Below are positions 6,965 to 60,215 of a stretch of DNA of 64,000 nucleotides, one piece after another; the stretch's first letter is position 1; each line of letters starts with the position of its first letter. Both the position numbers and the translations under genes were made by a program. The notes beneath the pieces are model-generated. The model did no database searches. It worked only from the letters and a program-made list of their open reading frames with translations, and was not told the DNA's origin. The DNA is taken from assembly GCF_002113885.1 (NCBI RefSeq), contig NW_018407247.1:285317-349316 (forward strand), in the 5' to 3' direction. The stretch is from Mizuhopecten yessoensis (lineage: Eukaryota).

Positions 6965-7255
6965 CTAGCAATGAAAAAATATAATAACCATCACACTTTA
7001 GAGGGAATTCTACAATGTGATTCTTTAAAAATATGCTTATGACCAGTCACATTAATAGTATGACTTAATGTAACACCTATTTCAAGATTGAGACAGTCGA
7101 ATTAAGAAAAGTTAATCTTGGGAGCAAATTAATCCTAAATAACTGCTGTTTACAAAACATATTTGATATCTGATGATGTAACATTATTTATTTTACAATA
7201 ATTATGAAGCAAGTTATTTCAGTTTAAATAAATCATTCTTGGTAGCCCGGATGTT

Positions 7256-7412
7256 AGTGCGCAGGGGTCCAAATGTGGAAGGAAACCGGAATTCCCGGAG
7301 AAAACCCACGTGGTCGGGCAGGTGACCCATACAATTTCACGTCCAATCGGGGAATCGAACCCCAGTCGCCTTGGTGAAAGGCAAGTGCGCTATCCACTGC
7401 GCCAACCGACCA
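7256..7412 (-). mobile_element. tRNA-derived V-domain SINE
   Basis: A box TGGCGCAGTGG and B box GGTTCGATTCC, followed by the V core GTGGGTTTTCTCCGGGAATTCCGGTTTCCTTCCAC. Confidence 0.85.
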
Positions 7413-8196
7413 CCAAGGTATCTGATAATGATTGATGGATATATAGTTCGAAAGATGAGTGTACAGCTGATTCAACATATTCATCTTATAGATTATCACA
7501 CAAAACGGTTCCATAGTTTGAGGTAGAATTTATGCTGGGTCACTTTCTAATGACTTTGAATAACTATTGTCGATATTTCCCTGAAGCTAAATCCATTATA
7601 CACGACCAGTACTGGTTACGGTGTTAATTTAGTAACACCATGTTTCAGCATTAGTTTACAACTCGTTTAGTACCAGGAGCTAGTTACAACAATACAAACT
7701 AAACATGCATTTTTGCGCCCGTACAATAAACGATAGGAACAGTAACAACACATACATGTTTATCATCTACACACTTACTGAGAAACGCTGCAAAAAAATC
7801 GTGTTTTAAATCCTATTAACAGCGATGGTCATTTAAGGACGTGCCTGGTTTTGATGGTTAATATAAACTTTATTTCATTCCAAGTTAACACGTTTACGAA
7901 TTAATCTCCTTATTTCGTTTGATAGCCAAGGGGGTTCATTAGATCTGATGGTTATTTTTTTATTCGGAATACAAGATTTAGCAATAGTAAGTAAAATATC
8001 TAAGAACTTTTTGACAGCATCATTAATATCATCAAAATCACTCAATAAATTCCAGTTAACTGAGCTGAGTTTTTCCCTAAATAAATCGTAATTTCCTAGG
8101 TCAAAAAGCCAAACGTTTCGCTTAAACACCTGCTGCACTGGCTTTGAAATATTAAAAGAACAATAAATTGGACAATGGTATCTAACCGGTTGGTCA

Positions 8197-9169
8197 CATC
8201 CTACATACAAAACTAAGAGACCGTTCTAGCACTTTGAAAAACGATCTATTCCGAGTTAACCTGGTTGATGACCAACGTTGTATGTGTGGTTACCCTATTG
8301 AAGACACCTTTCATTTCTTTTTTAACTGTGATAATTATGTTGAACAGAGAATTAAACTTTATCGTGAACTGAATGCATACATCCCCCTTACATTGAATCT
8401 ACTTCTTTTTGGAGATATAACAATTTCGGAGCAAGAAAACAAAATTATCTTCATGAATACTCAGCAATATATACAAGAATCAAACAGATTTTAACACCCT
8501 TCACCCCTCAAAATCGACATCTTTATTAATATATTTATCTTATTAATAATAATAGATTAACAACACGAGTTGCAACACACAAATATACGTATATATATAT
8601 ATATATAAACATAATGAAGTCGTGTGTTTGGTCTTTCTCTGTGCGGACGGACTAGTTGAAACGGAAATACCAGCAAGAACGGAGTGAACAGGAGGAAGTT
8701 ATAATAGCACGGGATGTGATGAACATTGATCAGAAGAAAGTTGTGAACAGCGAATAGTATAACTAGTCCGTTCGCATGGAGAAGGAACAACCACGTGGTC
8801 TGATATAAATTTTCTTAAATTTACAGTCTTGTTGCAGTACTTATCTAGTAATCTCAAAACATCGGGCCCTCTAACCCCTTCTTCCCTCTCCTCCCCTCTC
8901 ACCATCCCCCTATCTCTCTCTCTTCCTTTATCTACATGTGCATGTTTATATTTGTGCGCATGTGTGTGGTTCGGTGCGTGAATGTGTGGGAGTATGTATG
9001 TCACTGATTAATTAATTTATAATACATAGCTTATTTACGTAGTTCTGCCATCATGAAATTTTGTTAAAAAATATTATTGTACAGGGAAAGGGCTTGATAT
9101 AAGTTGTAAAACTTGTGCCCAATTCCATTGCTATGTAAAAAAAGGCAATAAAATATGTTTAAAACAAAA
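8197..9169 (+). mobile_element. 5'-truncated CR1/L2-group LINE (ORF2 C-terminal Cys/His region + 3' UTR), nested antisense in the host LINE
   Basis: Encodes ILHTKLRDRSSTLKNDLFRVNL...CMCGYPIEDTFHFFFNC and ends in stem-loop + CAATAAAATATGTTTAAA. Flanked by TSD AACCGGTTGGTCA (8184-8196 and 9170-9182). Confidence 0.92.
8620..8796. mobile_element. Small MITE-like inverted repeat inside the LINE 3' UTR
   Basis: Imperfect inverted arms TTCTCTGTGCGGACGGACTAGTT ... AACTAGTCCGTTCGCATGGAGAA. Confidence 0.55.
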
Positions 9170-9280
9170 AACCGGTTGGTCAAGGAAGCTTTCTCCAACA
9201 TAACAGTTATTAATAAGGTTATTACATGTACTACATGTACTAGTACAGACTATATCTAACAATGACTCCGAGGCTTCTGT

Positions 9281-10429
9281 TTAAAAAGTTGGTGATTCAA
9301 CAAGCTGAGTTAGATTAAAGGAAGCAAGTATATCGCGTAAGTGGGAAGAATGGTGGTCTACTAGGGCATTTGCATTGAAGTCTCCGGTTATCACAATATG
9401 AGAGATGCCTGTATTATACGCTTTTTCTATAGAATGCGAGATATGAGACCATATGATGATAGGAGAGTGTGGAGGCCGATAAAAAATACCATATAATATT
9501 TTCTCTGAACCAAGTACAATTTCTAACCAGACACATTCAATGGTAGCTATCTCTATATCTGATCTTCTTTTTGCAGGAATTTTATATTTTACATAAACCG
9601 ATATACCGCCGCCCATTCGATCAGGTCTACAGTAGCAGAATGGGTCAGAATATCCAGGCAGGTTTAGGTCAGATGAGATATCATTTAAATTTAACCATGT
9701 CTCAGTAAAGGATAAAATTGTTATATTACTTAACTCGGTGTAAAGAATATCAAGTTTTTGTTTGAGACTTTGAACATTAAGATGGACAAATGAAAAATTA
9801 CTGACCGCATCGAGCTGGCCAGTAATATTCGAAAAAATAGATGAGGAAGATGAGGAAGATGAGCTAGAACACATGGGACCAGGATTCAGTTCTATATCTC
9901 CAGATAACAACAGATGCCAATAGTCCAAAGCACGACGTAGAGATATAGATAATTTATCAGAAGCGGACATGATAGAAGAGGAGATGAATTTAGCACTTAT
10001 GTAATGAATATCAGGGTTATATTTGAAACTTTTGACGCTAAGATGGACGAAAGAATACCTATCGTTACAGAACTGGATACTTGAAGAGGAAGTAGAAGCA
10101 ATTGATTGAATGGTAGAAGTAGAAAAGTGCTGTGAATTTAACTCAATGTCACCTGACAAATACCAGCTGATCAATGCATAATGTATTGATATAAAAGTAA
10201 GAAATTCTGCTAAAAAGGACGCGAAGTGGTAACATGAACTGCTACGGAACGACTCTCTGAGTGATGAACTAATATTATGTAAATAAGACGTAAAAACATA
10301 TAACAAAAGTAAGAGTAATGCCATACATAACATGTCGGGAACGGTCACGTAATGAGCGAAAATTGCGGACTGTATAAAATTGCTGAAGACACCAATTCGA
10401 ACACGATAGAGAGAAACATCAATAGGCAT
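9281..10429 (-). pseudogene. LINE ORF2 fragment: leader-2A-APE endonuclease
   Basis: Open frame from MPIDVSLYRVRIGVF (ATG at 10429) through LLLSGDIELNPGP (9875-9913) into the APE domain. Stops at 9281. Confidence 0.85.
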
Positions 10430-11599
10430 TATGTAATGCCAGACTGGGCAAGGAGGTAAGTGAGTGCTCGAGAAGGTGTCGTGATCATGATAATAGAAGT
10501 AGTCAGAGGCACACTGGGCAATAGGGGAGGGGGTAGGGCAGAAGAGGAAACGGATATAAAAAAAATGACTATGAAGAGTTGAAATACGTTCATCAGAACC
10601 AAATTTGAAGAGAGGGGGAAAAGACCAGGTAATTGTTAATATTTTGTGACCGGTACTGGAACTGAAAATACAAATAGTAATGTGCACACACACACACACA
10701 CACGTTCATACATGCTCGCGTTAGCAATCATAAATTAACTTACACAATGATAAGGCTCAAATCAAAATAACGTGGACATTATCACTAGGCCTCATTATCT
10801 AGTGGAGTAATTCCACTGGTATCTGCCACAACCAAATAGTGTACAAAAATATGTACAAAATAGACTCATAGTGGTGAGAATGTTAGTTACTCACTTTGAG
10901 AGAAAACATGGGTACATACAAGATTCTATTAACCGGATCCGGTATACAACTTAGGTATAGGTTTGCAGTATAGCAATATATAGCAAATGTATAGCACGGA
11001 GAATTTATGTAATATCATTTTTTTTTTAAATAAGTAGTAGATCTAATAATAATACAAGTAATAGTAGTGTTCATGATAATAAAAAAAATCGACTCAAGGG
11101 GGAAAAAAACAAATAGGTACTACTACATTCAGGATTCTATGATGCTGGATTAGCCGATAACACCCAACTTACAGGTTTTGGTACAGACATAAACAATGTA
11201 ACAGTACATAGCATGATATAAAGCAATTCAACATGTAAGAATATCATAACCAAATTTAAATATTATGTTAGGAGAGTAGTTCACTATCTGTTATGGCCAT
11301 TAGTGTATAATACGGACAAAAAATCATAAGACACAAATTGATTTTTGTTACACTAACGTGTACATTTTACACTGTTTATGGAATCTCTATTGAAATAATG
11401 ATAATAGACAGATAAATTAATCGACGCCGCTAAAATGGGTACTACTACATACAGGAATCTATATACCAGAGTCCTGAGGAGCTGATAACAGCTTACGTAC
11501 AAGTTATAAGAATTTATATTCTAGCTTGCGTATAGGTCTGATATATATAAATAAATAGTGTACCAATACAGATATGAAAATCAAATCAAGGTAACGTAT

Positions 11600-11752
11600 A
11601 TGAGTTGATGGTTGAGGAAAGACAGGTTCCCAGAGAAAAAACACCGACCTACAGCCAGTACCTGGCGGCTGCCTACCGTAGGTCTCGAACCCGCGACCCT
11701 ATGGTTGAGGGCTCATGGTAGCAAAAGGTCAGACGCCTTAACCACTTGGCCG
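11600..11752 (-). mobile_element. V-domain SINE (family also at 23680 and 50540)
   Basis: On the minus strand: tRNA head GGCCAAGTGGTTAAGGCGTC ... GGGTTCGAGACC, then a degenerate V core. Confidence 0.75.
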
Positions 11753-13849
11753 CAAACATATTGGAAAACTGCTCCAGATGAATAATATCTATCTGTTTAT
11801 GTATAGGTCACAACAGTCAGAATGTCCTCGTTTGAAATAATTCAAAATCGTGTTGGAAGCATGATACCTCAGGGGAAACCACATGTTCACACTTGCATGC
11901 TGAGCTGAGTGGTAAAATCATTTGTGGTTCACTTTACAGCTGTTTGTGTATTTGGATTGAAAAGTCATTGAATTTTTTAGATACGGTTGCTTTACTTTCC
12001 CAATAAGTTAACAGGTTGCATTTAATGATGAAACAACATCTTTTAAACATTTATTAAGTTATACAACACGGTACCTTTCACAGATATCCCGTGATATGCG
12101 GTATAGCATCTTGGAGATATTATTCGAAATGATCTGTATTTCATACCCTCATGAATGCTGTATCAAGGTGCAAGGCAATCCTAACACGTAAAGCCTTTTA
12201 CAATCAAATCGACGAAGAAAAATTATGCAAACTATTTTCCAAAAAGCAGAACAGAAAATTTCGCGGGAAAATAATCCTGTTGTTTATGGTTAACAATTTC
12301 GTCTGGTGACAAAATTTGATAAGAAACCAATTGGGATTTTCACATAATTCAAAGTTTAGGGTTACGTCAGGATCTGTTCAGATTACTCTCCTCACAGAAG
12401 TACCCTAATTGTTTCCGACTGAAAAATATGTTCACGTGAAATAGTCCTTGCCGGTATTGGATTACAACACTTTTGGATGGTACATATAAGTTCTAAGGTC
12501 TGTGAAACGGAATGTAAATATTCTTGCATTAATGATTTAATTGTAAGCTTCAAATCAACTTAATTTTTTAATGTTTACCTCATTACCAATGCATTCTTTA
12601 AAAGGTAGCTACTCTAGACACAAATGGAATTTTGAATTTTAAGTAGAAAACTGTTTATTTGTGGGAGAATCGGCATATTTCGGCCTTGTAGCCTCGAGCA
12701 GTTCATTCTCTAACAGAATGGATGATATTTGGTCTAGCTCCAGTCCATAAAATATTTGTTTAACAAGATGTATCAATCGAAAAGTGTAAATATGTTTATC
12801 GAGTTGTCTCGGTGTAGGCTTCCTATTTTAATTATTTACCAAACGTATAAGTCCTGCAGGTTTTAACGTATTAGAATTTGCACTGTACAAAACAGGGACG
12901 GTTTACTATTAAGCTGTAAGGTAAATGTGACGATTCGAATTTTTTTCTGATCGTGAAGTTTCTCTTTCTTGATAGTATTTTTTTCTGCTTCCCAATTTAT
13001 AGTGTAAACTTGTCTGGGTTGATTCAATACTCACGGGATTGCTCCGAACAGCATTATTCCCTTGATAAAGACTTCGGGCAAGTTTTATTGTAGCCAGCAT
13101 GACCTTATCAGGAAATGTTACGTCGAAATGACAGAATTTGACATTACTAGGATTTAATCTTGACACTGTATAGATATTTTCTTCTTTCGTGATTTTTTCT
13201 TAGTTACATCGATTGTGAGTTCGAAATTCGTTTTTATTTATACTTCGGTATTCGTTTGCGTTTTGTTTACTCCCTTGCGTTCTTGACTCAAAATCAATAT
13301 TTGAGAGCTGTTTAATTTGTTATTGTCTTTCTCTGCTTGTTTTAACAGCTAAACATATATGCATATATTGCGAAATATGAATGACTTACATTGAACAAAT
13401 GATTTACATTGATGGGATAATTCAGGTTAAGTAGGAAACCATTGTCAAGTAACAAAACGAAATACAAAATAAATAAATGAATGAAATAGATAAATAAATA
13501 GAGTAAGATAGAAAAAGGGGAAGTGAACAAGTGTTTCTATGGAAACCCACAGTTTAAACACCAGTATTCAACGCATTTCAATATATATATATCGTAATGG
13601 AGTTTTGAACAGTGAAAATGTAGGTTAGTTATAACCGGTATGACAAAGAATGACCGCTCTATTCATATTTATATTAGTTAACTAGTTTAAACGAGACATG
13701 ACGGGGAAAATATAATGGGGGAAGGGAATGGGTATAAGTATTTGTAAAAGCATGTTAGGAAGACTAAGATTCTATATTTAAAGAATTTCAGGTTAACTAT
13801 TAAGCCTCTAAGTTACATACAAGTACGCATGAAAGAGTTAACTGGAAAC

Positions 13850-16285
13850 AATGTTAACATACAAACAGGGAGGGATAGCTCTCACCCAGTGTTAACCTAC
13901 AAACAGGGAGGAATAGCTCTCATGCAGTGTTAACATACAAACAGGGTTGACAAGCTCTCACCCAGTGTTAACATATAAACAGGAAGGAACAGCTCTCACT
14001 CAGTGCTAACATACAAACAGGGAGGAAAAGCTCTCACTCAGTGTTAACATACCAACAGGGAGTAACAGCTCTCACTCAGTGTTAACACAACAACAGGGAG
14101 GAACAGCTATCACTCAGTGTTTACATATAAACAGGGAGGAAAAGCTCTCACTCAGTGTTGACATACAAACAGGAAGGAACAGCCCACACCCAGTGTTAAC
14201 ATACAAACCGGGAGGAATAGCTCTCACTCAGTGTTAAGATACAAACAAGGAGGAACAGCTCTCACCCAGTGTTAAATTACAAACAGGGAGGAACAGCTCT
14301 CCCTCAGTGTTAACATACAAACAAGGAGGAACAGCTCTCACTCAGTGCTAACATACAAACAGGGAGGAACAGCTCTCAATCAGTGTTAACATACAAACAG
14401 TAAGGAACAGCTCTCACTCAGTGTTATCAAGCAAACAGGGAGGAACAGCTCTCCCTCAGTGTTAACATACAAACAAGGAGGAACAGCTCTCACTCAGTGC
14501 TAACATACAAACAGGGAGGAAAAGCTCTCACTCAGTGTTGACATACAAACAGGAAGGAACAGCCCACACCCAGTGTTAACATACAACCAGGAAGGAATAG
14601 CTCTCATCCAGTGTTAACATACAAACAGTAAGGAACAGCTCTCACTCAGTGCTAACATACAAACAGGGAGGAAAAGCTCTCACTCAGTGTTGACATACAA
14701 ACAGGAAGGAACAGCTCACACCCAGGGTTAACATACAAACAAGGAGGAACAGCTCTCACCCAGTGATAACATACAGACAGGGAGGAACAGCTCTCACACA
14801 GTGTTAACTTACAAACAGGGAAGAACAGCTCTCACTCAGTGTTATCAAACAAACAGGGAGGAACAGCCCTCCCTCAGAGTTAACACACAAACAGGAAGGA
14901 ATAGCTCTCAACCAGTGTTAACATACAAACAGAGATGAATAGCTCTCACCCAGTGTTAACATATAAACAGGAAGGAACAGCTCTCACTCAGTGTTATCAA
15001 GCAAACAGGGAGGAACAGCTCTCACTCATTGTTAACTTACAAACAGGGAGTAACAGCTCTCACTCAGTGTTAACTCACAAACAGGGAGGAACAGCTATCC
15101 CTCAGTGTTAACATACAAACAGAGAGGAACAGCTCTCACCCAGTGATAACATACAGACAGGGAGGAACAGCTCTCACACAGTGTTAACTTACAAACAGGG
15201 AGTAACAGCTCTCACTCAGTGTTATCAAACAAACAGGGAGGAACAGCTCACACCCAGTGTTAACATACAAACAGAGAGGAACAGCTCTCACCCAGTGTTA
15301 AATTACAAACAGGGAGGAACAGCTCACACCCAGTGTTAACATACAAAAAGGGAGGAACAGCTCTCACCCAGTGATAACATACAGACAGGGAGGAACAGCT
15401 CTCACCCAGTGATAACATACAGACAGGGAGGAACAGCTCTCACACAGTGTTAACTTACAAACAGGGCGGAACAGCTCTCACTCAGTGTTATCAAGCAAAC
15501 AGGGAGGAACAGCCCTCCCTCAGGGTTAACACACAAACAGGAAGGAATAGCTCTCATCAAGTGTTAACATACAAACAGGGTTGACAAGCTCTCGCCCAGT
15601 GTTAGCATACAAACATGGAGGAACAGCTCTCACTCAGTGTTAACATACCAACAGGGAGTAACAGCTCTCACTCAGTGTTATCAAGCAAACAGGGAGGAAC
15701 AGCTCTCCCTCAGTGTTAACATACAAACAAGTAGGAACAGCTCTCACCCAGTGTTAAATTACAAACAGGGAGGAACAGCTATCCCTCAGTGTTAACATAC
15801 AAACAGAGAGGAACAGCTCTCACCCAGTGATAACATACAGACAGGGAGGAACAGCTCTCACCCAGTGATAACATACAGACAGGGAGGAACAGCTCTCACA
15901 CAGTGTTAACTTACAAACAGGGCGGAACAGCTCTCACTCAGTGTTATCAAGCAAACAGGGAGGAACAGCCCTCCCTCAGGGTTAACACACAAACAGGAAG
16001 GAATAGCTCTCAACCAGTGTTAACATACAAACAGGAAGGAACAGCCCACACCCAGTGTTAACATACAACCAGGAAGGAATAGCTCTCATCAAGTGTTAAC
16101 ATACAAACAGGGAGGAAAAGCTCTCACTCAGTGTTAGCATACAAACAGGAAGGAACAGCTCACACCCAGTGTTAACATACAAACAGGGAGGAACAGCTCT
16201 CACTCAGTGTTAACATACAAACAGGGAGGAATAGCTCTCACTCAGTGTTAACATACAAACAGGGAGGAACAGCTCTCACTTAATG
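13850..16285. repeat. 38-bp satellite (~64 copies; CAGTGTTAACATACAAACAGGGAGGAACAGCTCTCACT)
   Basis: Tandem array is directly visible. Period of 38 checked at 16205/16243. Confidence 0.98.
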
Positions 16286-16312
16286 TTCTTGACCTTTCGT
16301 CTGTGTTATAGA

Positions 16313-16700
16313 TACTGGAGGACAACCGATATGGTTTCATTTTCTGAGAGCGGGAGGCTACCAACGTTTACTGAGACAAAATGTCTAATCTAGAGATTTT
16401 AACGCCAGTTCTAGTTAGGAAAACGCAGGGGAAACTGTTAGGTTGATTTGTTCTCTTCGCCGCAATCACAGAAGGGACTCCAAATTACAGTTTTACTGAA
16501 AAAANAACTGGAGGACATACGATATGGTTTCATTTTCTGAGAGCGGGAGGCTACCAACGTTTACTGGGACAAAATGTCTAATCTAGAGATTTTAACGCCA
16601 GTTCTAGTTAGGAAAACGCAGGGGAAACTGTTAGGTTGATTTGTTCTCTTCGCCGCAATCACAGAAGGGACTCCAAATTACAGTTTTACTGAAAAAAAAA
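16313..16700. other. ~190-bp direct duplication across a single N (probable assembly overlap artefact)
   Basis: Near-identical copies on either side of the N at 16505. Confidence 0.8.
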
Positions 16701-17894
16701 TGAGCTTTTAATTTCATTCACAATCTGGAGTGATGTATTTGTCCTTGGCTGTTACCCTATTGGTACCAATTAGGGATTTTGTCCGTTCGACTGTCTAAAT
16801 ACTTCATAAGCTTTAATGCATAACACCGGACCGAAGCTGTTTGCACCAGCACAATTAGTCAGTTAGATTAAATACCTTTCAGATACTCACTGTCTTTTGT
16901 AGTCATTCAATAGTATTGACCGAATAAAGATGATATTTGTAGCTTCATTTTCATTTTGAACTTAGTCGACAGGGCGAAATAAACAATACGGCAAACATTG
17001 TAAAAAGGACGGGGGTTAAAACCTGCATGGCAGCGAATAATGCAATCATGATATATTTGGGAAGTTTCAAAACCATTAGCGGACGAATTTAAAACGGAAC
17101 GAATTTATCATATAAGGCTGAAGAGTGACATTTGAAGCAGCGAATTGAACGCCCTGTAACAATCGCTAGTCTTATCTCAACTGTTAGTGTAACACGGTCA
17201 ACTCCATGTTCTAGTAACAACATGTAGCTTTACCGGAACCGGAAGTGTTGTGTAACAAACATTCTTATTCCAACAACTATTTGTTTTCAGTCAATAACCA
17301 TAGACTAAGAAGACATCATGAACTTTATATTGCACTTATATATATGTGTGTGACTATAATATCCATTTTCCATTTACTAAAACTTAACCTTGTGCTTCTA
17401 TCAACTACGTACCAGCAAACCTTGTTATTCCGGGCTCCCTATAGCAATCACTGTCATTAAACTAATGAGACTAAGCATATACATTTGGATATGCAATGGC
17501 GATCAAAGAGCTCAGACCTATACAGGTCAGAGAGTGGGCATGAATAGGCGTAGCCAACTAGATATGATTCTTTATCGTGACTTCTGCAAAATCAAATTTA
17601 AATAAAACTTCTTAATGGTTGTTTTAAGTTAAAACATTGCAATCAAGTTTTTATCATGTTGAAGCAGTGACCTACTAGACCATCTTACAAAAATGAATCG
17701 TGCCTGTTGTAACTTTATGAATATCAATGAAAGTTGTTTAAATATAGAGTCACTTAACTCATTGAACCCTGAAATTTCATAATGAACTGTTCCATCCTTT
17801 GTATTGGAATGGTTCAAATGTGTCTTCAGGTGTAAATTCGCAGAAGCTGCCTTATCAGGCGCTAACTACTAGTCCTATGTCACCTGGCTAAGAT

Positions 17895-18185
17895 CTCCCT
17901 ATGTGTGTATGCCTGCGTGCGTGCTGGAGATGTAATGTGTTCTGTTTGTAGTGGGACCGCGCTTCCAACGTCGTCATTAATAGTGTCACCTTACTTGAAT
18001 GCTACAGCACAGATACCGCAACATTCACCTCAGACCAATTTATACTCCAACTGGGTTGTTGGAGCTGTGTTGGCAGGAGAAAAAAACTTTCTCTGAATAT
18101 CCATGCGGATGACGACTTCGGGGATCGAACCTCGGCCGCCTGCGTGGAAGGCCGGAGTAGTGTTAACCACTCGACCAATCCGCCC
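17895..18185 (-). mobile_element. tRNA-derived SINE with Deu/Nin-like central domain
   Basis: Minus strand: TGGTCGAGTGGTTAA ... GGTTCGATCCC boxes. Downstream AGTATAAATTGGTCTGAGGTG...CATTCAAGTAAGGTGACACTATTAA resembles the domain at 49095-49170. Confidence 0.65.
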
Positions 18186-21084
18186 ATATATAGCCGCATT
18201 TTAGTTCATGAATATAGTGGTTAATTTCATTAGGAATGGCTGGAAAATAACGACATTGTAAATGTATATAGCTTCATCAGTTATCCATACATACCTGTAC
18301 TCATCACCTGTTGAGGTTCAACGCCTAATGACACTCCATTTAATGACAAGAAACATAATCCCCAATAAGGTTTTGATAAATGATCACAAGATTGTCGAAT
18401 AATACGACACGATCCTTGAAATTCTCCCGGATCAATCATTGCCGTTCAAGAGTAGAATAATATACGTACAGATCATATTCCAACGATTCGCCGACGACTG
18501 TTTCATTAAAGCAGTGACTATGATAATGAACACCAGCCTAGCCTTACACGTACCACACAGAGTCACAACGGTCAGACAGCCTCGCAACACTAATGGCTGA
18601 CACGTCTGATCAGCTTAAGCTAAGTTGACCGGATGTGGATTTTGGCCGGATGTGGAAAACATGTGAAAATGATGATGAGTGGTTGTTGTCATCTAAAGTG
18701 ATGGCATTGAATTAAAATGTAGAAAAAATATGTAATAACCTACAATTGTTTATGAGATACAAATAACATTTTGCTAGACAGTAATATCACTTGAAACCTT
18801 TTTGGAACTTCATATGTTACTGTCAACGGTAGTATTAAAATATTGAAATTAAAAAAAAACACAACGAAATTAAAACAGTCATCATTTATTGTTGGTACAT
18901 TTTAACAATTCCACGTTCACATATTATCAATAAACAAGACGAAAATAATATAAAATGTTCGTAAATTTACATTTCATCAGCTGTAAGCCTAAGGTCGTCA
19001 TTGTTAAAATGGCTGCCGGTAATTTACACATTCCAGTGGAGTTGAATGTATCGGCAGCAATAACTAAAAATTTCCTCCGTACCAACTGACATACACTGAC
19101 ATTCTGTTCACGCAATATCTATTCCCGAAGCCGACAACAAAATTAAATGGCGTATTGTTTGAGACTCTAAACTGCCTCACGGATCGAATTCCGGACTTAT
19201 TGCTGTAAACTGATTGTATGTGTTAGGGTTGGTGATATAGCTAACGAAATAAGATATCTAATGATTGATGGAAAGTCTACATCGTCGGGAACTCAGGTTA
19301 TATTGGTGGGCGAGGAAAAGCGCCAAGTCGATTGCATATTACATAATTCGCTAGATTATATTCTGTAATTATTTACATGATCAACTGCAGTACACATTCC
19401 ATTGGAAGTATTTATAGTATCCGGACTAGCTCCAGCTTCACTTAGTTCTATTAGCAGAGTACCTTGGCTGTCGTATCAATATTAAGAGGTCGTCACGTAA
19501 TCGTGAAGATTTTTTTCTGCATTGGTCATTGATCCTATACCTTCTACGCAGCAGATATAATGTAACAATCCAAAAAGCAACGTAATCATGTTAATAATTT
19601 TAAAAGAACGACGAAAGAATATTAATCATATTCATTAAATGGATGTCTTGATAATTATGCAACCGTTAATTGAAATTTTTGATGAAACAATACTTAAAAA
19701 CGTCGGATACATGTATGTATGATGTTACTCACTACCCCAATAGTTAATCCCTTTACCAGCGAAATAGAAATAAAGGATGACATAAAGGCAACTTATCTTC
19801 TGTTTGATATCCTCTTTAGAACTGAATTAAATACAGCATAACGAGTTATAAACACGGGCTTAAGTATTCGCGATCTTGACCGAAAATTAAAACAATAGGA
19901 TTTACACGGGTTACAATTTCGCTATCAAGACACGTGAAGGATCTAAATTTTCCCGGTTTTTTAACACATAGACGGGACACTCGGCACAAAAAATGTCAAA
20001 TAATCAAATGAATAGGCTTAATGACAGAAAATAGAGCAGCACCAAGATAGTATATTTCGTTAAACAAATCATCAACAAAACAATTCTATCAACGTTTGAT
20101 GTAATCGATCCTCAATCAACATTACTCGGCATGTATGTGTATCGTCACGACCACATGCGCGCTATTCCATGACGACATGACGGTAATTAAGTTTAAGCTT
20201 GTCGTATTATTCTGCGGATCATATTTTCGCGATTACGTAATTGACCCGCGAAAAACGCGAAAATATCTTCCTCGCGGAAATATTCGGTTTTGCTACAAAG
20301 CCTTAGTTTACACAAAGGAAAACACTCATTAGTAATGTATGTTTCCTATATATGCTTCTTTCAGTTGGCATCCATGGGCATTCATATTGCCTATGAGTGC
20401 CAACTGAAAGCAGATCCATGACTATATTGCCAAGGGGGGCGTCAGTAGTTTCCAACGTAACAATTATGACGTCAACAAACGGTCCGTGGCGTTCATAGCC
20501 TATATGAATGCCAACTGAATTTGTTAGGGTTATAATTATAGTGACAATGCCATACGATGGTAAATATTGTAGTATAGAACTGCTGGTAATGGTTTTGAAA
20601 AGTTAGTCACTGAATATCTTAACATTTATTTAATAAATGTTGGTTTCATTATTGCATACTTCATTGTAAACATAATCTCGACTAAAGTCTTGTTACAAAC
20701 ATAGTATTTATTATTGTAATATCTTATATATTGTTTAAAACTTATCTTTTTCTGGTTGCATCCATGGTATCAATGTAGGCCGGAGATTTAACCATAAAAG
20801 ACTTAGCCAGACAATAGGCAAAACTATATCATGCTGAATTTAACACACTTCCTGGTTTTGTTAAATCTTGCAGGTCTATCATCTTGTTGTGTACACTTAA
20901 CGTCAGCCTGTATTTTGACGCTGATGCCCAAACTACTTTCAACGTCTATGTTGAAAGTAATTGGTTGCATCGACAGACAAAGCATCTAATAGCTTAACCC
21001 CTGTCTGAAAACACTTTTACATATACAGCTTGCAAAATCAACAAGACTTGCTTGCATATGAGATTACATTTATTTGAGAGCCTA

Positions 21085-21430: not shown

Positions 21431-22189
21431 ATTATCTCGTGTGTTCAGAAATTCATATACATAATCTTATTAATTCAATGTATTGTTTATTTTTTTTATA
21501 TTGATGACGTGATACCATGTCGATCAGATCAGTTCCCACTGAACTTGAATTCAAGGACAATACGAGCTCCTCTACATTAGCCGATTTCCTCAATCGTTAC
21601 TTACAACATGACTAAGGTTGAACAAGCTGTAGTCACCTAAATCTTCATCCCCGCTGATAAAGTCGGAACTTATAAATGTAATTTGAGTAAATTGAACTTG
21701 TACATTTGCTATTAAAAAACATGCATAGCCAGATTAACGTAGTTGAAAATAAGACATTTATGCTGATGTCTTCATACAAATAACTCATCAGACTTATAAC
21801 ATGTCAATCTCTTTAGCGACCTAACTGAATGCTACATATGTAAGAAATTTCTCTTTTACTAGCTGTTGAGAGGAATTCTGACCTCAAATAAGGATAGATG
21901 GTGCCACTTGATTTACGATATTGTTTACAATTCGGTATTTTTTTTTTAAGATTTTTTTTTCTCTGTATTATGTTTATGCCGTACGCAATGTTGTAAGTAT
22001 AGCGTCACTATAACGACGGGTGTGTTCAATATAGTATAATCATATAGACACATTTGTTAAATATAGCGTCAGGATATGTGCACCTGAAACGTCACTATTC
22101 AGACGCCTGTGTTAGCTTAAACATCACTCTATGGACAATTGTGGTCAGGCATTCGATATATCATTTAAGTCAAAGTCACAATCCGATCC

Positions 22190-22370
22190 GACTCGAAATG
22201 GTATGGGAGCATCTGCCTGACTGTGTTGGTTTTCTCCGGGTACTCCGGTTTCCTCTTACATAAAGTCCGCCTCCAGCACGCTAACATCCGGGCCAACAAA
22301 AGTGATTATAATAAGTTGAAACAACTTGTTTAATAATTGTTTTAAAAGACATAAAGTTTATATTTTAGTT
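22190..22370 (+). mobile_element. V-domain SINE (5'-truncated) with LINE-like 3' tail
   Basis: V core GGTTTTCTCCGGGTACTCCGGTTTCCTC. Tail hairpin ATAAGTTGAAACAACTTG. Confidence 0.8.
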
Positions 22371-26832: not shown

Positions 26833-27090
26833 GTTTGTTCCAGATTGGGTTTTTACACCACTAGAGTTCCGTATATACAGAAATATTAAAAAAAAATGGA
26901 ATTGCGGGGACTTAACAGATTTGTCGTTATTTACCTTAAAGTCGATATATTTGGTTATATACCTTCTATACGATAAAATCGCACATAACAGAATGTTTAT
27001 AAGTTCATAGAACACATTTTTAAAGTCAGCATGTGGAAAAAATGATCGAACCACCATGAGCATATAACACAAGTTTTACAATGATCTCTG
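26833..27090. repeat. Dispersed repeat, copy 1 (near-identical to 30881-31135)
   Basis: The two copies give nearly identical spurious ORFs (MCYMLMVVRSFF...) and matching DNA. Confidence 0.9.
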
Positions 27091-27300
27091 CGACAATCAC
27101 TCAAGTCGTGTTCAGAGCAAATAAGCAGTAATGGTACTAAAACACTGCCTTGAGGTACACCAAAATAAATATTATACATGTTGCCAAGTAAGTCTGCATG
27201 AGTTCTATCAGAAAAGATGAACTGCACAAGCCAACGTTCATACGATATAGTTAAAGATATATGTATTTCATGATCAACGATGTCAGATCCATTGTTTGAA
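27090..27300 (-). mobile_element. Decayed LINE reverse transcriptase fragment
   Basis: GVPQGSVLVPLLLICSEHDLSDC corresponds to the RT motif GVPQGSVLGPLLFxxYxNDL. Confidence 0.65.
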
Positions 27301-35300: not shown

Positions 35301-36300
35301 TTAATTTGGGACCATATAGTTTCATCGCTACCAATTTCAAGATCGTTTCTCCGCTTGGCTACGAGTGATTCAGAAAAATACATAGCAACCCCACCACCAA
35401 ACATGTTTCTATCCTTACGAAGTGGTTCAGGGAAACCATCAATTTTAAGTTCAGAATATGGAACAGAGTTATCAAGATGGGTTTCAGTAAAGCATAACAT
35501 ATTAATATCATCTATTAAGGAACAAATATAGTTTACGTTGTTACGCAGACTGCGAATGTTTAAATGAAACAAACTAAGGACATTGGGAGCCGAGCTACTA
35601 TTAGAATTGGGCCCCGGGTTAGGGTGGATATCACCAGCTATCAGTAAGATAATTAAGGCTGAATTGAATGGATTGCGGATGGAGTTGGACAACTGCAGTA
35701 GCAACAAATAGATCCGATGGAGACAGTTAAGATTGGAGATTAATGTTTTAAACCTTTTGAAGTAATTGTTTTTAAAAACAAGGGTGACTGGTAAACATGC
35801 TAACTTACAATAGAAACATCCTATAGCAGCCCTCCAAGCGCATAAGTCATAACCCGTCATGCAGGGACAAAATTAAAAATCACTAAAAATTGATGGAGGT
35901 CTACCAACAGTGACTGGGATGAACAAGCATATCCTAGGGAGGAGGGGGTAGTGGAGTCAAGAAGAGGAAAGAAATAGATCAAGGAAGAAGAATAAGACAC
36001 ACGAAGAAAAAACAGGAAAAGAACACAAGGATCGAAAAGGCATAGAAAAAAACCTATATACATTACTGATATGAAGCCAACAATTGGCATCAGCGATGAT
36101 CGACTTTATAACTGAGTCGACCATGGTGAGGTGGGTGACAATACATTGACAGGGAAAATGGCATAATCATGGTAATTTGAGAGGAAAAAATATAATAATA
36201 AAAAATTAATAAAAAAAAGAATACATATATATTCGTGTGTGTAATTTATATAAAAAAAAGAAATCATCTCGGAGATTTGCAGTAAGCATACATTGAAATT
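32318..36300 (-). mobile_element. Near-complete ORF2 CR1/L2-group LINE (leader-2A-APE-RT-C-terminal Cys/His), frameshifted
   Basis: Motifs GDIHPNPGP, HLNIRSL, CFTETHL, KASGPDGI, NYRPISL, DFSKAF, GVPQGSVLGP, LFADD, KHLGV and CRCGHPCEDCYH. 3' stem-loop, CAATAAAATATGTTTAAA and (AAACT)n tail. N gap at 35029. The 5' limit is approximate. Confidence 0.96.
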
Positions 36301-60019: not shown

Positions 60020-60215
60020 AGGTTGGTCGGGTGTCGAAGTGGATATCGTACTTGCCTTTCACCAAGAATTCCGCGGTCGGACGTGAAAAGGTATTTGGTC
60101 ACCTGCCCGACCACGTGGGTTTTCTCCGGGTTCTCATGTTTCCTCCCACATTAAAACCCCCGCGCGCTAAAATCCGGGTCAACAAAAACAATTATTATAA
60201 GTTAATCATTGTTCG
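60020..60215 (+). mobile_element. V-domain SINE (same family as 7256 and 22190)
   Basis: GGTCACCTGCCCGACCACGTGGGTTTTCTCCGGGTTCTCATGTTTCCTCCCAC. Confidence 0.85.

Follow-up and report, generated by a model that had tools for sequence, protein, structure and literature searches.

A tandem, in-frame repeat of a 2A core and first endonuclease strand in ORF2 of a multi-copy LINE family

On the minus strand of the window, by which we mean the whole 64,000-nucleotide stretch of DNA that was analysed, the listing of open reading frames gives a frame of 382 amino acids that runs from an ATG at 10429 to a stop at 9283–9281 and carries an N-terminal APE endonuclease domain (PF03372, 35 bits against a cutoff of 24.5, E 1.6e-8). 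Two 2A cores lie in this frame 84 codons apart, SGDIELNSQH at 10156–10127 and SGDIELNPGP at 9904–9875, and each is followed by a Ser-rich linker and then by a copy of the first APE strand. The downstream core fits the pattern D(V/I)ExNPGP preceded by Gly, that is, a class A 2A/StopGo core; the upstream core is without the NPGP ending, in the window as well as in the high-depth contigs described below. The features of the element are given here in relation to P0001, the best full-length protein match (1169 aa, with APE, an intact RT and a single 2A module, and labelled "invertebrate metagenome" by its source), and to contigs from four sequencing runs, X1, X4, X8 and X15.

10430..11300, minus strand: putative 5′ UTR, over which contig depth is 7–10 times that of the flank in X4 and about 14 times in X8, up to the end of the compared stretch
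10157..10429, minus strand: ORF2 leader, residues 1–91, identical to the P0001 leader at 42 of 91 positions and with the same start Met
10127..10156, minus strand: upstream 2A core SGDIELN-SQH, PGP lost, as read from the sequence, with identical letters in the high-depth contigs
10058..10126, minus strand: Ser-rich linker, copy 1, 26 residues when counted from the residue after Asn, as in P0001, with 7 of 20 aligned positions identical
10001..10057, minus strand: decayed copy of the first APE strand, with the catalytic-motif Asn changed to Ser; 11 of 19 residues identical to P0001, against 17 of 19 in copy 2
9947..10000, minus strand: junction between the units, 18 codons, highly diverged, with an in-frame Met at 9970, on the same register as a 6-nt word that occurs in both the leader (10219) and APE (9712)
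9905..9961, minus strand: second copy of the pre-2A helix, now polar (hydropathy 0.07), with a His codon (9916–9914) at a conserved Leu position
9875..9904, minus strand: downstream 2A core SGDIELNPG/P, matching GD(V/I)ExNPGP, with the skip predicted between Gly184 and Pro185
9284..9796, minus strand: APE endonuclease domain (PF03372, E 1.6e-8), 113 of 152 residues identical to P0001 beyond strand 1
9281..9283, minus strand: stop codon absent from the majority form of the family; the covering contig in 4 of 4 runs has another letter at 9281, which makes a sense codon
9226..9237, strand not given: 12-nt local duplication absent from the majority form, omitted by the main covering contig in 4 of 4 runs
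8184..9169, plus strand: nested 3′ end of a LINE in opposite orientation (ORF2 C-terminus and 3′ UTR); a joint 8183–9170 skips these 986 nt in 4 of 4 runs
7890..8183, minus strand: continuation of ORF2 into the APE-RT linker (67% to P0001 residues 328–429), then a break, with RT absent

No ORF1 was seen upstream, the only stop-to-stop frames of at least 90 aa within 10401–20000 being of 90, 96 and 101 aa, the last of which is this ORF's own 5′ end. The leader contains hydrophobic segments at about residues 26–44 and 73–91 (Kyte-Doolittle 19-mer means of 1.7 and 1.3), and its sole Pfam match, DUF2208, lies below the cutoff and is taken as hydrophobic noise. The nested LINE piece matches P0001 residues 1070–1168 at 38% and is bounded by a 13-nt target-site duplication read from the sequence (8184–8196 and 9170–9182). 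P0001 residues 430–1069 find no match in the window copy, which is to say that its RT part is missing; the RT domain is present in the closest relatives, P0001 and P0004, and absent from this truncated copy. A contig from X15 extends 307 letters past 7890 and is unlike the window there. With a stop at 9281, a nested LINE insertion and its 3′ part missing, the window copy is itself dead.

The repeated unit comprises 84 codons, tandem and in frame, and consists of a pre-2A helix, the 2A core, the Ser-rich linker and the first APE strand. At the protein level, the two modules align with a score of 99, the best of 2000 shuffles reaching 61, and BLASTP finds 30 identities in 69 positions (E 6e-9); at the nucleotide level, the APE-strand copies are 79% identical over 56 nt (10000–10055 versus 9739–9794, E 1.3e-5 in blastn against the whole window). 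The first-pass annotation had placed two homologous modules in one open frame, with motifs at 10130–10153 and 9875–9913, and had proposed that the 2A and first APE strand were duplicated, that the upstream copy then lost NPGP while the frame stayed open, and that the leader was thereby lengthened from about 100 to about 184 aa; it had counted a failure of the modules to align significantly as evidence against this. The coordinates are correct, both the shuffles and BLASTP give a significant alignment, the leader measures 100 aa up to the first motif and 184 aa up to Gly184, and the proposed course of events is supported, with the addition that about 20 residues of helix before the 2A core, overlooked there along with the downstream breakage of this copy, also belong to the repeated unit. 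Its summary of the pair as one dead and one canonical motif is well supported for the dead member; "canonical" applies to the core octamer of the other, which follows a polar helix with His at a Leu position. Translation likely begins at 10429 and a start at the internal Met at 9970 is disfavoured, as the intervening 153 codons are uninterrupted by a stop and align with P0001 from its first residue onward.

P0001 and the window family have the same leader, 2A, linker and APE, with 76% identity in APE over 165 columns, and P0001 differs in having one module, a 102-residue leader and Leu-Leu at 2A positions 6–7. Named matches come from Dreissena and Mytilus, and on the strength of these bivalve relatives the element is likely a bivalve-type, CR1-like LINE; CR1-Zenon has been described as bivalve-rich (PMC10294476). 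A 2A at the ORF2 N-terminus of APE LINEs is already known (PMC3708506 and PMC3894237; these papers, like the others cited here, are drawn on in part). The elements of Odon et al. 2013, CR1-1_CGi and CR1-1_LG (PMC3708506), resemble ours in placing GD(V/I)ExNPGP just before APE near the ORF2 N-terminus, in that no ORF1 was seen upstream, and in that inactive variants also occur. In the part of that paper drawn on, each is described with one 2A, about 40–80 residues from the start, whereas the tandem unit of the window family, 84 codons long and inclusive of the first APE strand, gives it two cores, with the intact one at residue 184.

Among 20 sequencing runs listed, 17 contain the stretch or part of it (7 studies), and four of them from four studies (X1, X4, X8 and X15) were compared over 7500–11300 at 80% likeness. 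Contigs from all four cover both modules without a gap, the broken SGDIELNSQH included, and a single X1 contig spans 9429–10648 with 16 other letters and no gap. The duplicated unit is skipped by 0 of 15 joints (the best 15 of 17). In X8, records 27 and 28 span 9639–10321 with 8 differing letters, all of them known and none within 9962–10201, so that the majority sequence includes the PGP-less motif, the junction and the His that precedes the second core. Neither the stop nor the 12-nt duplication nor the nested insertion occurs in the main covering contigs of any of the four runs, and the majority frame is thus open for at least 514 codons. Within the ORF, at least 15 differences between the window copy and the contigs are listed, one of which (10377) varies among runs; 12 are replacements, the stop being one, and 3 are silent, and since silent sites make up 22%, this is the neutral ratio and the window copy has decayed neutrally. 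The duplication might have been private to the window copy, and this is rejected by the high-depth contigs of all four runs, which carry both modules. The doubled module is the majority form of a likely young, multi-copy LINE family and not a lesion of one copy.

Depth was controlled by one flank contig per run (7500–7840), found in X4 at 16.8 and in X8 at 5.24 and absent in X1 and X15. Contigs over both modules reach depths of 265–311 in X4 and 96–108 in X8, or 15–20 times the flank, where depth is a summed value rather than a copy number and rare variants are dropped from contigs. Because of this last property, a minority of single-module copies may exist in the family. From the 3′ side to the 5′ side of the element, depth declines from 26–27 times to 7–14 times the flank in X4 and X8, 5′ truncation being read here indirectly from contig depth. 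Thinning toward the 5′ end is the pattern expected of 5′-truncated retrotransposition. We read this as some 10–30 copies about 1% away from the master (16 in 1220 letters), so that the family is likely young and may be active at present. It is very improbable, in our estimation, that the high depth instead reflects segmental duplication or the passive carriage of a dead LINE piece: such an origin could be accommodated by the summed depth, which gives no copy number, and by the RT not having been seen, but the majority form has none of the window copy's lesions and is open for 514 codons, and depth drops toward the 5′ end while the flank stands at single-locus depth. The check put forward in the first-pass annotation, namely whether the duplication is in the family consensus, is answered in the affirmative by the contigs, and its suggestion that the duplication was fixed in an active lineage stands as regards the majority form; the window copy itself is dead, and the family's activity and intact RT are what we infer. 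The RNA run X15 covers the modules and not the flank, which could have been taken for transcription, and this was dismissed because the DNA-type run X1 gives the same pattern.

A second case of the duplication is found in P0004, an intact 1333-aa ORF2 with APE and RT in which the module is repeated over residues 106–261 with a period of 146 residues and with both 2A cores intact. P0004 resembles the window family in that the same unit is duplicated, here in an intact APE-RT frame, in that the upstream APE strand is decayed and in that the second helix is less hydrophobic (0.82 versus 2.43); it differs in its two intact cores, its period and its separate origin. In a tree of APE sequences with 19 rows (12 of 12 longer matches, 6 of 13 near matches and the window, with the long row P0012 kept in), the window pairs with single-module P0001 at 98/95. 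Common ancestry of the window and P0004 duplications, as one clade in this tree, is rejected (p-AU 0.003), and the duplication has therefore arisen at least twice.

How often such duplications occur can be estimated roughly. A module profile search yielded 1778 cluster representatives, 150 of which are among the matches listed. Among 170 proteins with a first APE strand, an intact NPGP or HPGP is found in 162 and a version off by one residue in 8, and two cores that are both intact occur in 2 of the 170 (P0004 and P0120). Because the upstream copy in the window itself escaped a strand-1 sub-profile at 8 bits, decayed modules were counted by self-alignment instead, in 115 other sequences that extend far enough upstream (89 of 171 proteins and 26 of 80 loci). 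The resulting z values were 11.3 for P0004, 10.2 for the window and 7.5 for P0019, with the next at 2.2. Of 80 metagenome loci, 36 contain APE, 33 of these have a 2A before it, and none has two. The duplication rate of about 1–3% is rough, most representatives being fragments and only 69 of 162 having at least 84 upstream residues. The broken module of the window family was found in none of the longer, near and shorter protein relatives (12, 13 and 1 matches) by a word-based search that is weak for absence; a GTDB scan gave 36 candidates and 0 confirmed relatives, and an ESM Atlas search with residues 1–184 gave matches of 0.76 only, below chance level.

Several sequences met in these searches have other multiple-2A arrangements. 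P0120, a 114-aa fragment of a LINE protein, has two intact cores 42 residues apart within residues 9–59. P0019, of 314 aa, is built of 2A-like repeats, five or six in number and spaced by about 45 residues, some of which are degenerate, and it is without an APE strand. At L056 1420–1570, two 2A cores lie at a distance of 39 residues in a long frame that lacks APE and that, by impression only, resembles a viral capsid polyprotein.

Judged by their sequences, the two copies in the window family have undergone reciprocal decay, in which the upstream copy keeps a hydrophobic helix and LSGDIELN and loses PGP, and the downstream copy keeps NPGP and the APE strand and has a polar helix. The upstream strand is the one further from P0001 (11 versus 17 of 19 identical) and has lost the first-motif Asn, and the two strand copies differ from each other by 9 replacement and 4 silent changes. 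Across LSGDIELN, the copies differ by 8 silent and 0 replacement changes, and PGP is separated from SQH by at least 4 replacements when counted by hand from the nearest PGP codons, or by 4.5 against the present second copy. In replacement changes, the core differs from PGP at a Fisher p of 0.002 and from the APE strand at a p of 0.05, on counts that are small and post hoc. The 19 residues before the core have a mean hydropathy of 1.34 upstream and 0.07 downstream, compared with 1.93 in P0001 and 2.43 and 0.82 in P0004; values of 0.07 or less occur in 1 of 143 proteins and 3 of 33 loci, the protein set being biased to hydrophobic helices by the profile. At the conserved Leu position before the downstream core, where the window family has His, relatives have Leu in 113 of 153 cases and His in 2 of 153; Leu7 is present. 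Helix identity to P0001 hardly differs between the copies (11 of 25 upstream, where two codons just before SGD are lost, and 9 of 25 downstream), and the helix asymmetry accordingly rests on hydropathy.

The silent changes do not fit a single duplication date. They affect 7 of the 8 core codons and 4 of the 19 codons of the APE strand (a Fisher p of 0.002 on small, post hoc counts), and silent divergence is saturated in the core, with 8 changes at about 5 sites, as opposed to 0.38–0.44 in the APE-strand copies and the helix. The simplest reading would be a period with two selected 2As, as P0004 has today, followed by loss of the upstream PGP. This reading does not account for the lesser silent divergence of the APE-strand copies, which may be due to later conversion, a chimera or chance. 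Had template switching instead united modules of two related LINE subfamilies, with no duplication inside one element, the core's silent saturation would be divergence between those subfamilies. We hold this to be distinctly improbable, because silent divergence in strand and helix is only 0.38–0.44 and because both copies have Leu at the core x position and Ile in strand 1 where P0001 has Ser and Val. The 6-nt word common to the leader (10219) and APE (9712) keeps to the 84-codon period (P about 0.015 at this single offset), which is a weak hint of an origin by slippage at microhomology.

It is reasonably probable, in our view, that the in-frame 84-codon repeat is the majority form of a young, retrotransposing family in which the first 2A is read through and the second skips at least partly. 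The duplication would have occurred in a master element once its lineage had parted from that of P0001, perhaps via reverse-transcriptase slippage at the 6-nt microhomology. Both 2As were probably retained for a time, after which redundancy may have let each copy shed one part, so that the upstream copy would have lost PGP and the APE strand and kept the leader's hydrophobic helix, and the downstream copy would have lost helix hydrophobicity and kept NPGP and the enzyme. The upstream module is probably kept mainly because a ribosome that starts at the ATG has to translate it on the way to APE-RT. A skip at the downstream core, at least a partial one, would likely free a 184-residue leader and let APE-RT begin at Pro185. 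The second hydrophobic helix of the leader, which in single-module relatives would be in the exit tunnel at the moment of skipping, should now leave the ribosome about 84 residues before the skip. Hydrophobic, Leu-rich helices before eukaryotic 2As lower protein abundance, in 59% of ORF2 cases tested (PMC13405545), and by extension ORF2 output would be held down less by the polar second helix than it was by the ancestral one.

The upstream motif is predicted to be read through because saturation scans of P2A and F2A found skipping below 0.2 for substitutions in NPGP (10.64898/2026.09.24.754024). The downstream 2A is a probable skipper, although its efficiency cannot be assumed given the His at the position of P2A/F2A Leu6; Leu6 substitutions reduced activity to below 0.2 in the scan of the same preprint, where tolerance was context-dependent. 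It also carries an LLLSG-like hexapeptide that resembles a known upstream class, the LLLLSG-like class named in PMC12846837. Among CR1 2As tested, both from molluscs were active, and several lancelet ones with a largely conserved motif were inactive (PMC3708506). An alternative that we find rather doubtful is that neither 2A skips efficiently, so that the main product is a leader-ORF2 fusion and the family is drifting away from StopGo. The loss of the upstream PGP, the polar downstream helix with its His at Leu6, the inactivity of several CR1 2As (PMC3708506) and a screen in which 43 of 580 retroelement 2As were highly active (10.64898/2026.09.24.754024) are all consistent with this. Yet the downstream core still reads GDIELNPGP without a flaw although 7 of 8 core codons have changed silently, a sign of selection. 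The likeness of LLLSG to the known upstream class (PMC12846837) and the activity of both mollusc CR1 2As (PMC3708506) also count against this alternative.

The conservation of the upstream core could mean more than residual redundancy. In a division of labour, the upstream helix and GDIELN would be selected for a job independent of PGP, and the downstream copy would only cut; we entertain this tentatively and think it unlikely. There are 0 replacements at about 19 sites of LSGDIELN, versus at least 4 at about 7 in PGP and 9 at 46 in the strand, the helix asymmetry recurs in P0004, and hydrophobic or poly-Leu helices before eukaryotic 2A cores lower abundance (PMC13405545). On the other hand, this concerns eight codons only, picked after viewing the alignment, the upstream helix has lost two codons before SGD and is less hydrophobic than that of P0001 (1.34 versus 1.93), and a long double-2A phase followed by PGP loss explains part of the pattern without a present function. 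Candidate jobs, which are conjectural to the same degree, would be ribosome pausing, lowered ORF2 output or membrane targeting of the translating RNA. A more general proposal, to which we likewise give little weight, is that LINE 2As do two separable jobs that were split here by duplication, with P0004 at an earlier stage of the same recurrent path.

The duplication is real, family-wide and recurrent, and represents a variant of the known 2A-LINE design rather than a new system. Surprise at it should be moderate, since a skip site makes the part upstream of it dispensable to the enzyme and redundancy predicts the loss of one motif. Several 2As in one frame are also known from picornaviruses with multiple 2A(NPGP) (PMC11512398), among them parechovirus E, in which the first is inactive and the second active, and from a back-to-back viral tandem 2A (10.64898/2026.09.24.754024); these are viral polyproteins without a duplicated enzyme strand and, unlike the window family, not retrotransposons. 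Some eukaryotic genes hold up to three 2As and are left unnamed in the text of PMC12338488. Within the literature searched, which excluded most subscription journals, we found no report of a tandem LINE unit of helix, 2A and APE strand, and the multi-2A genes of PMC12338488, a source drawn on in part, may include LINE ORF2s.

Proposals for the role of the LINE 2A and its hydrophobic leader include down-regulation of ORF2, replacement of ORF1 and simple separation (PMC3708506, PMC3894237, PMC13405545). One small clade now offers three natural states, with one module (P0001), two intact modules (P0004) and a broken module plus a polar helix (the window family), which separate the helix from the skip core without engineering and make the role of the LINE 2A, including which part sets ORF2 output, directly testable. 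The ORF2 N-terminus also tolerates an 84-residue insertion that contains a decoy piece of its own endonuclease, as would be expected if the 2A frees APE-RT from whatever precedes it.

The window contains further repeats. On the minus strand at about 35700–32587 lies another broken APE-RT LINE, which belongs to the same broad group (33–39% to P0001/P0002) and whose one 2A-like motif, at 35635, reads GDIHPNPGP; the HP variant seen in this motif is the commonest among the relatives tallied (His 83, Glu 66). Further short relics of LINE ORF2 were found by tblastn at 16610–16819, 27075–27236 and 1182–1496, all on the minus strand. Adjoining the broken 3′ end of the element is a very high-copy short repeat at 7801–7858, with a bin depth of 168,230 in X4, and a tRNA-derived, SINE-like repeat lies at 7246–7412 (tRNA at 7340–7411, the sole Rfam match), with similar sequences at 22183–22358 and 60024–60178 and another tRNA-like head seen by eye near 11750 (11620–11760). 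Upstream of the ORF, a direct repeat (11111–11177 and 11433–11505) has a spacing of 322–328 nt and reaches 90% over 30 nt, and a third, weaker match lies near 10913. The repeat may be a part of the 5′ UTR or derive from the tails of older LINEs.
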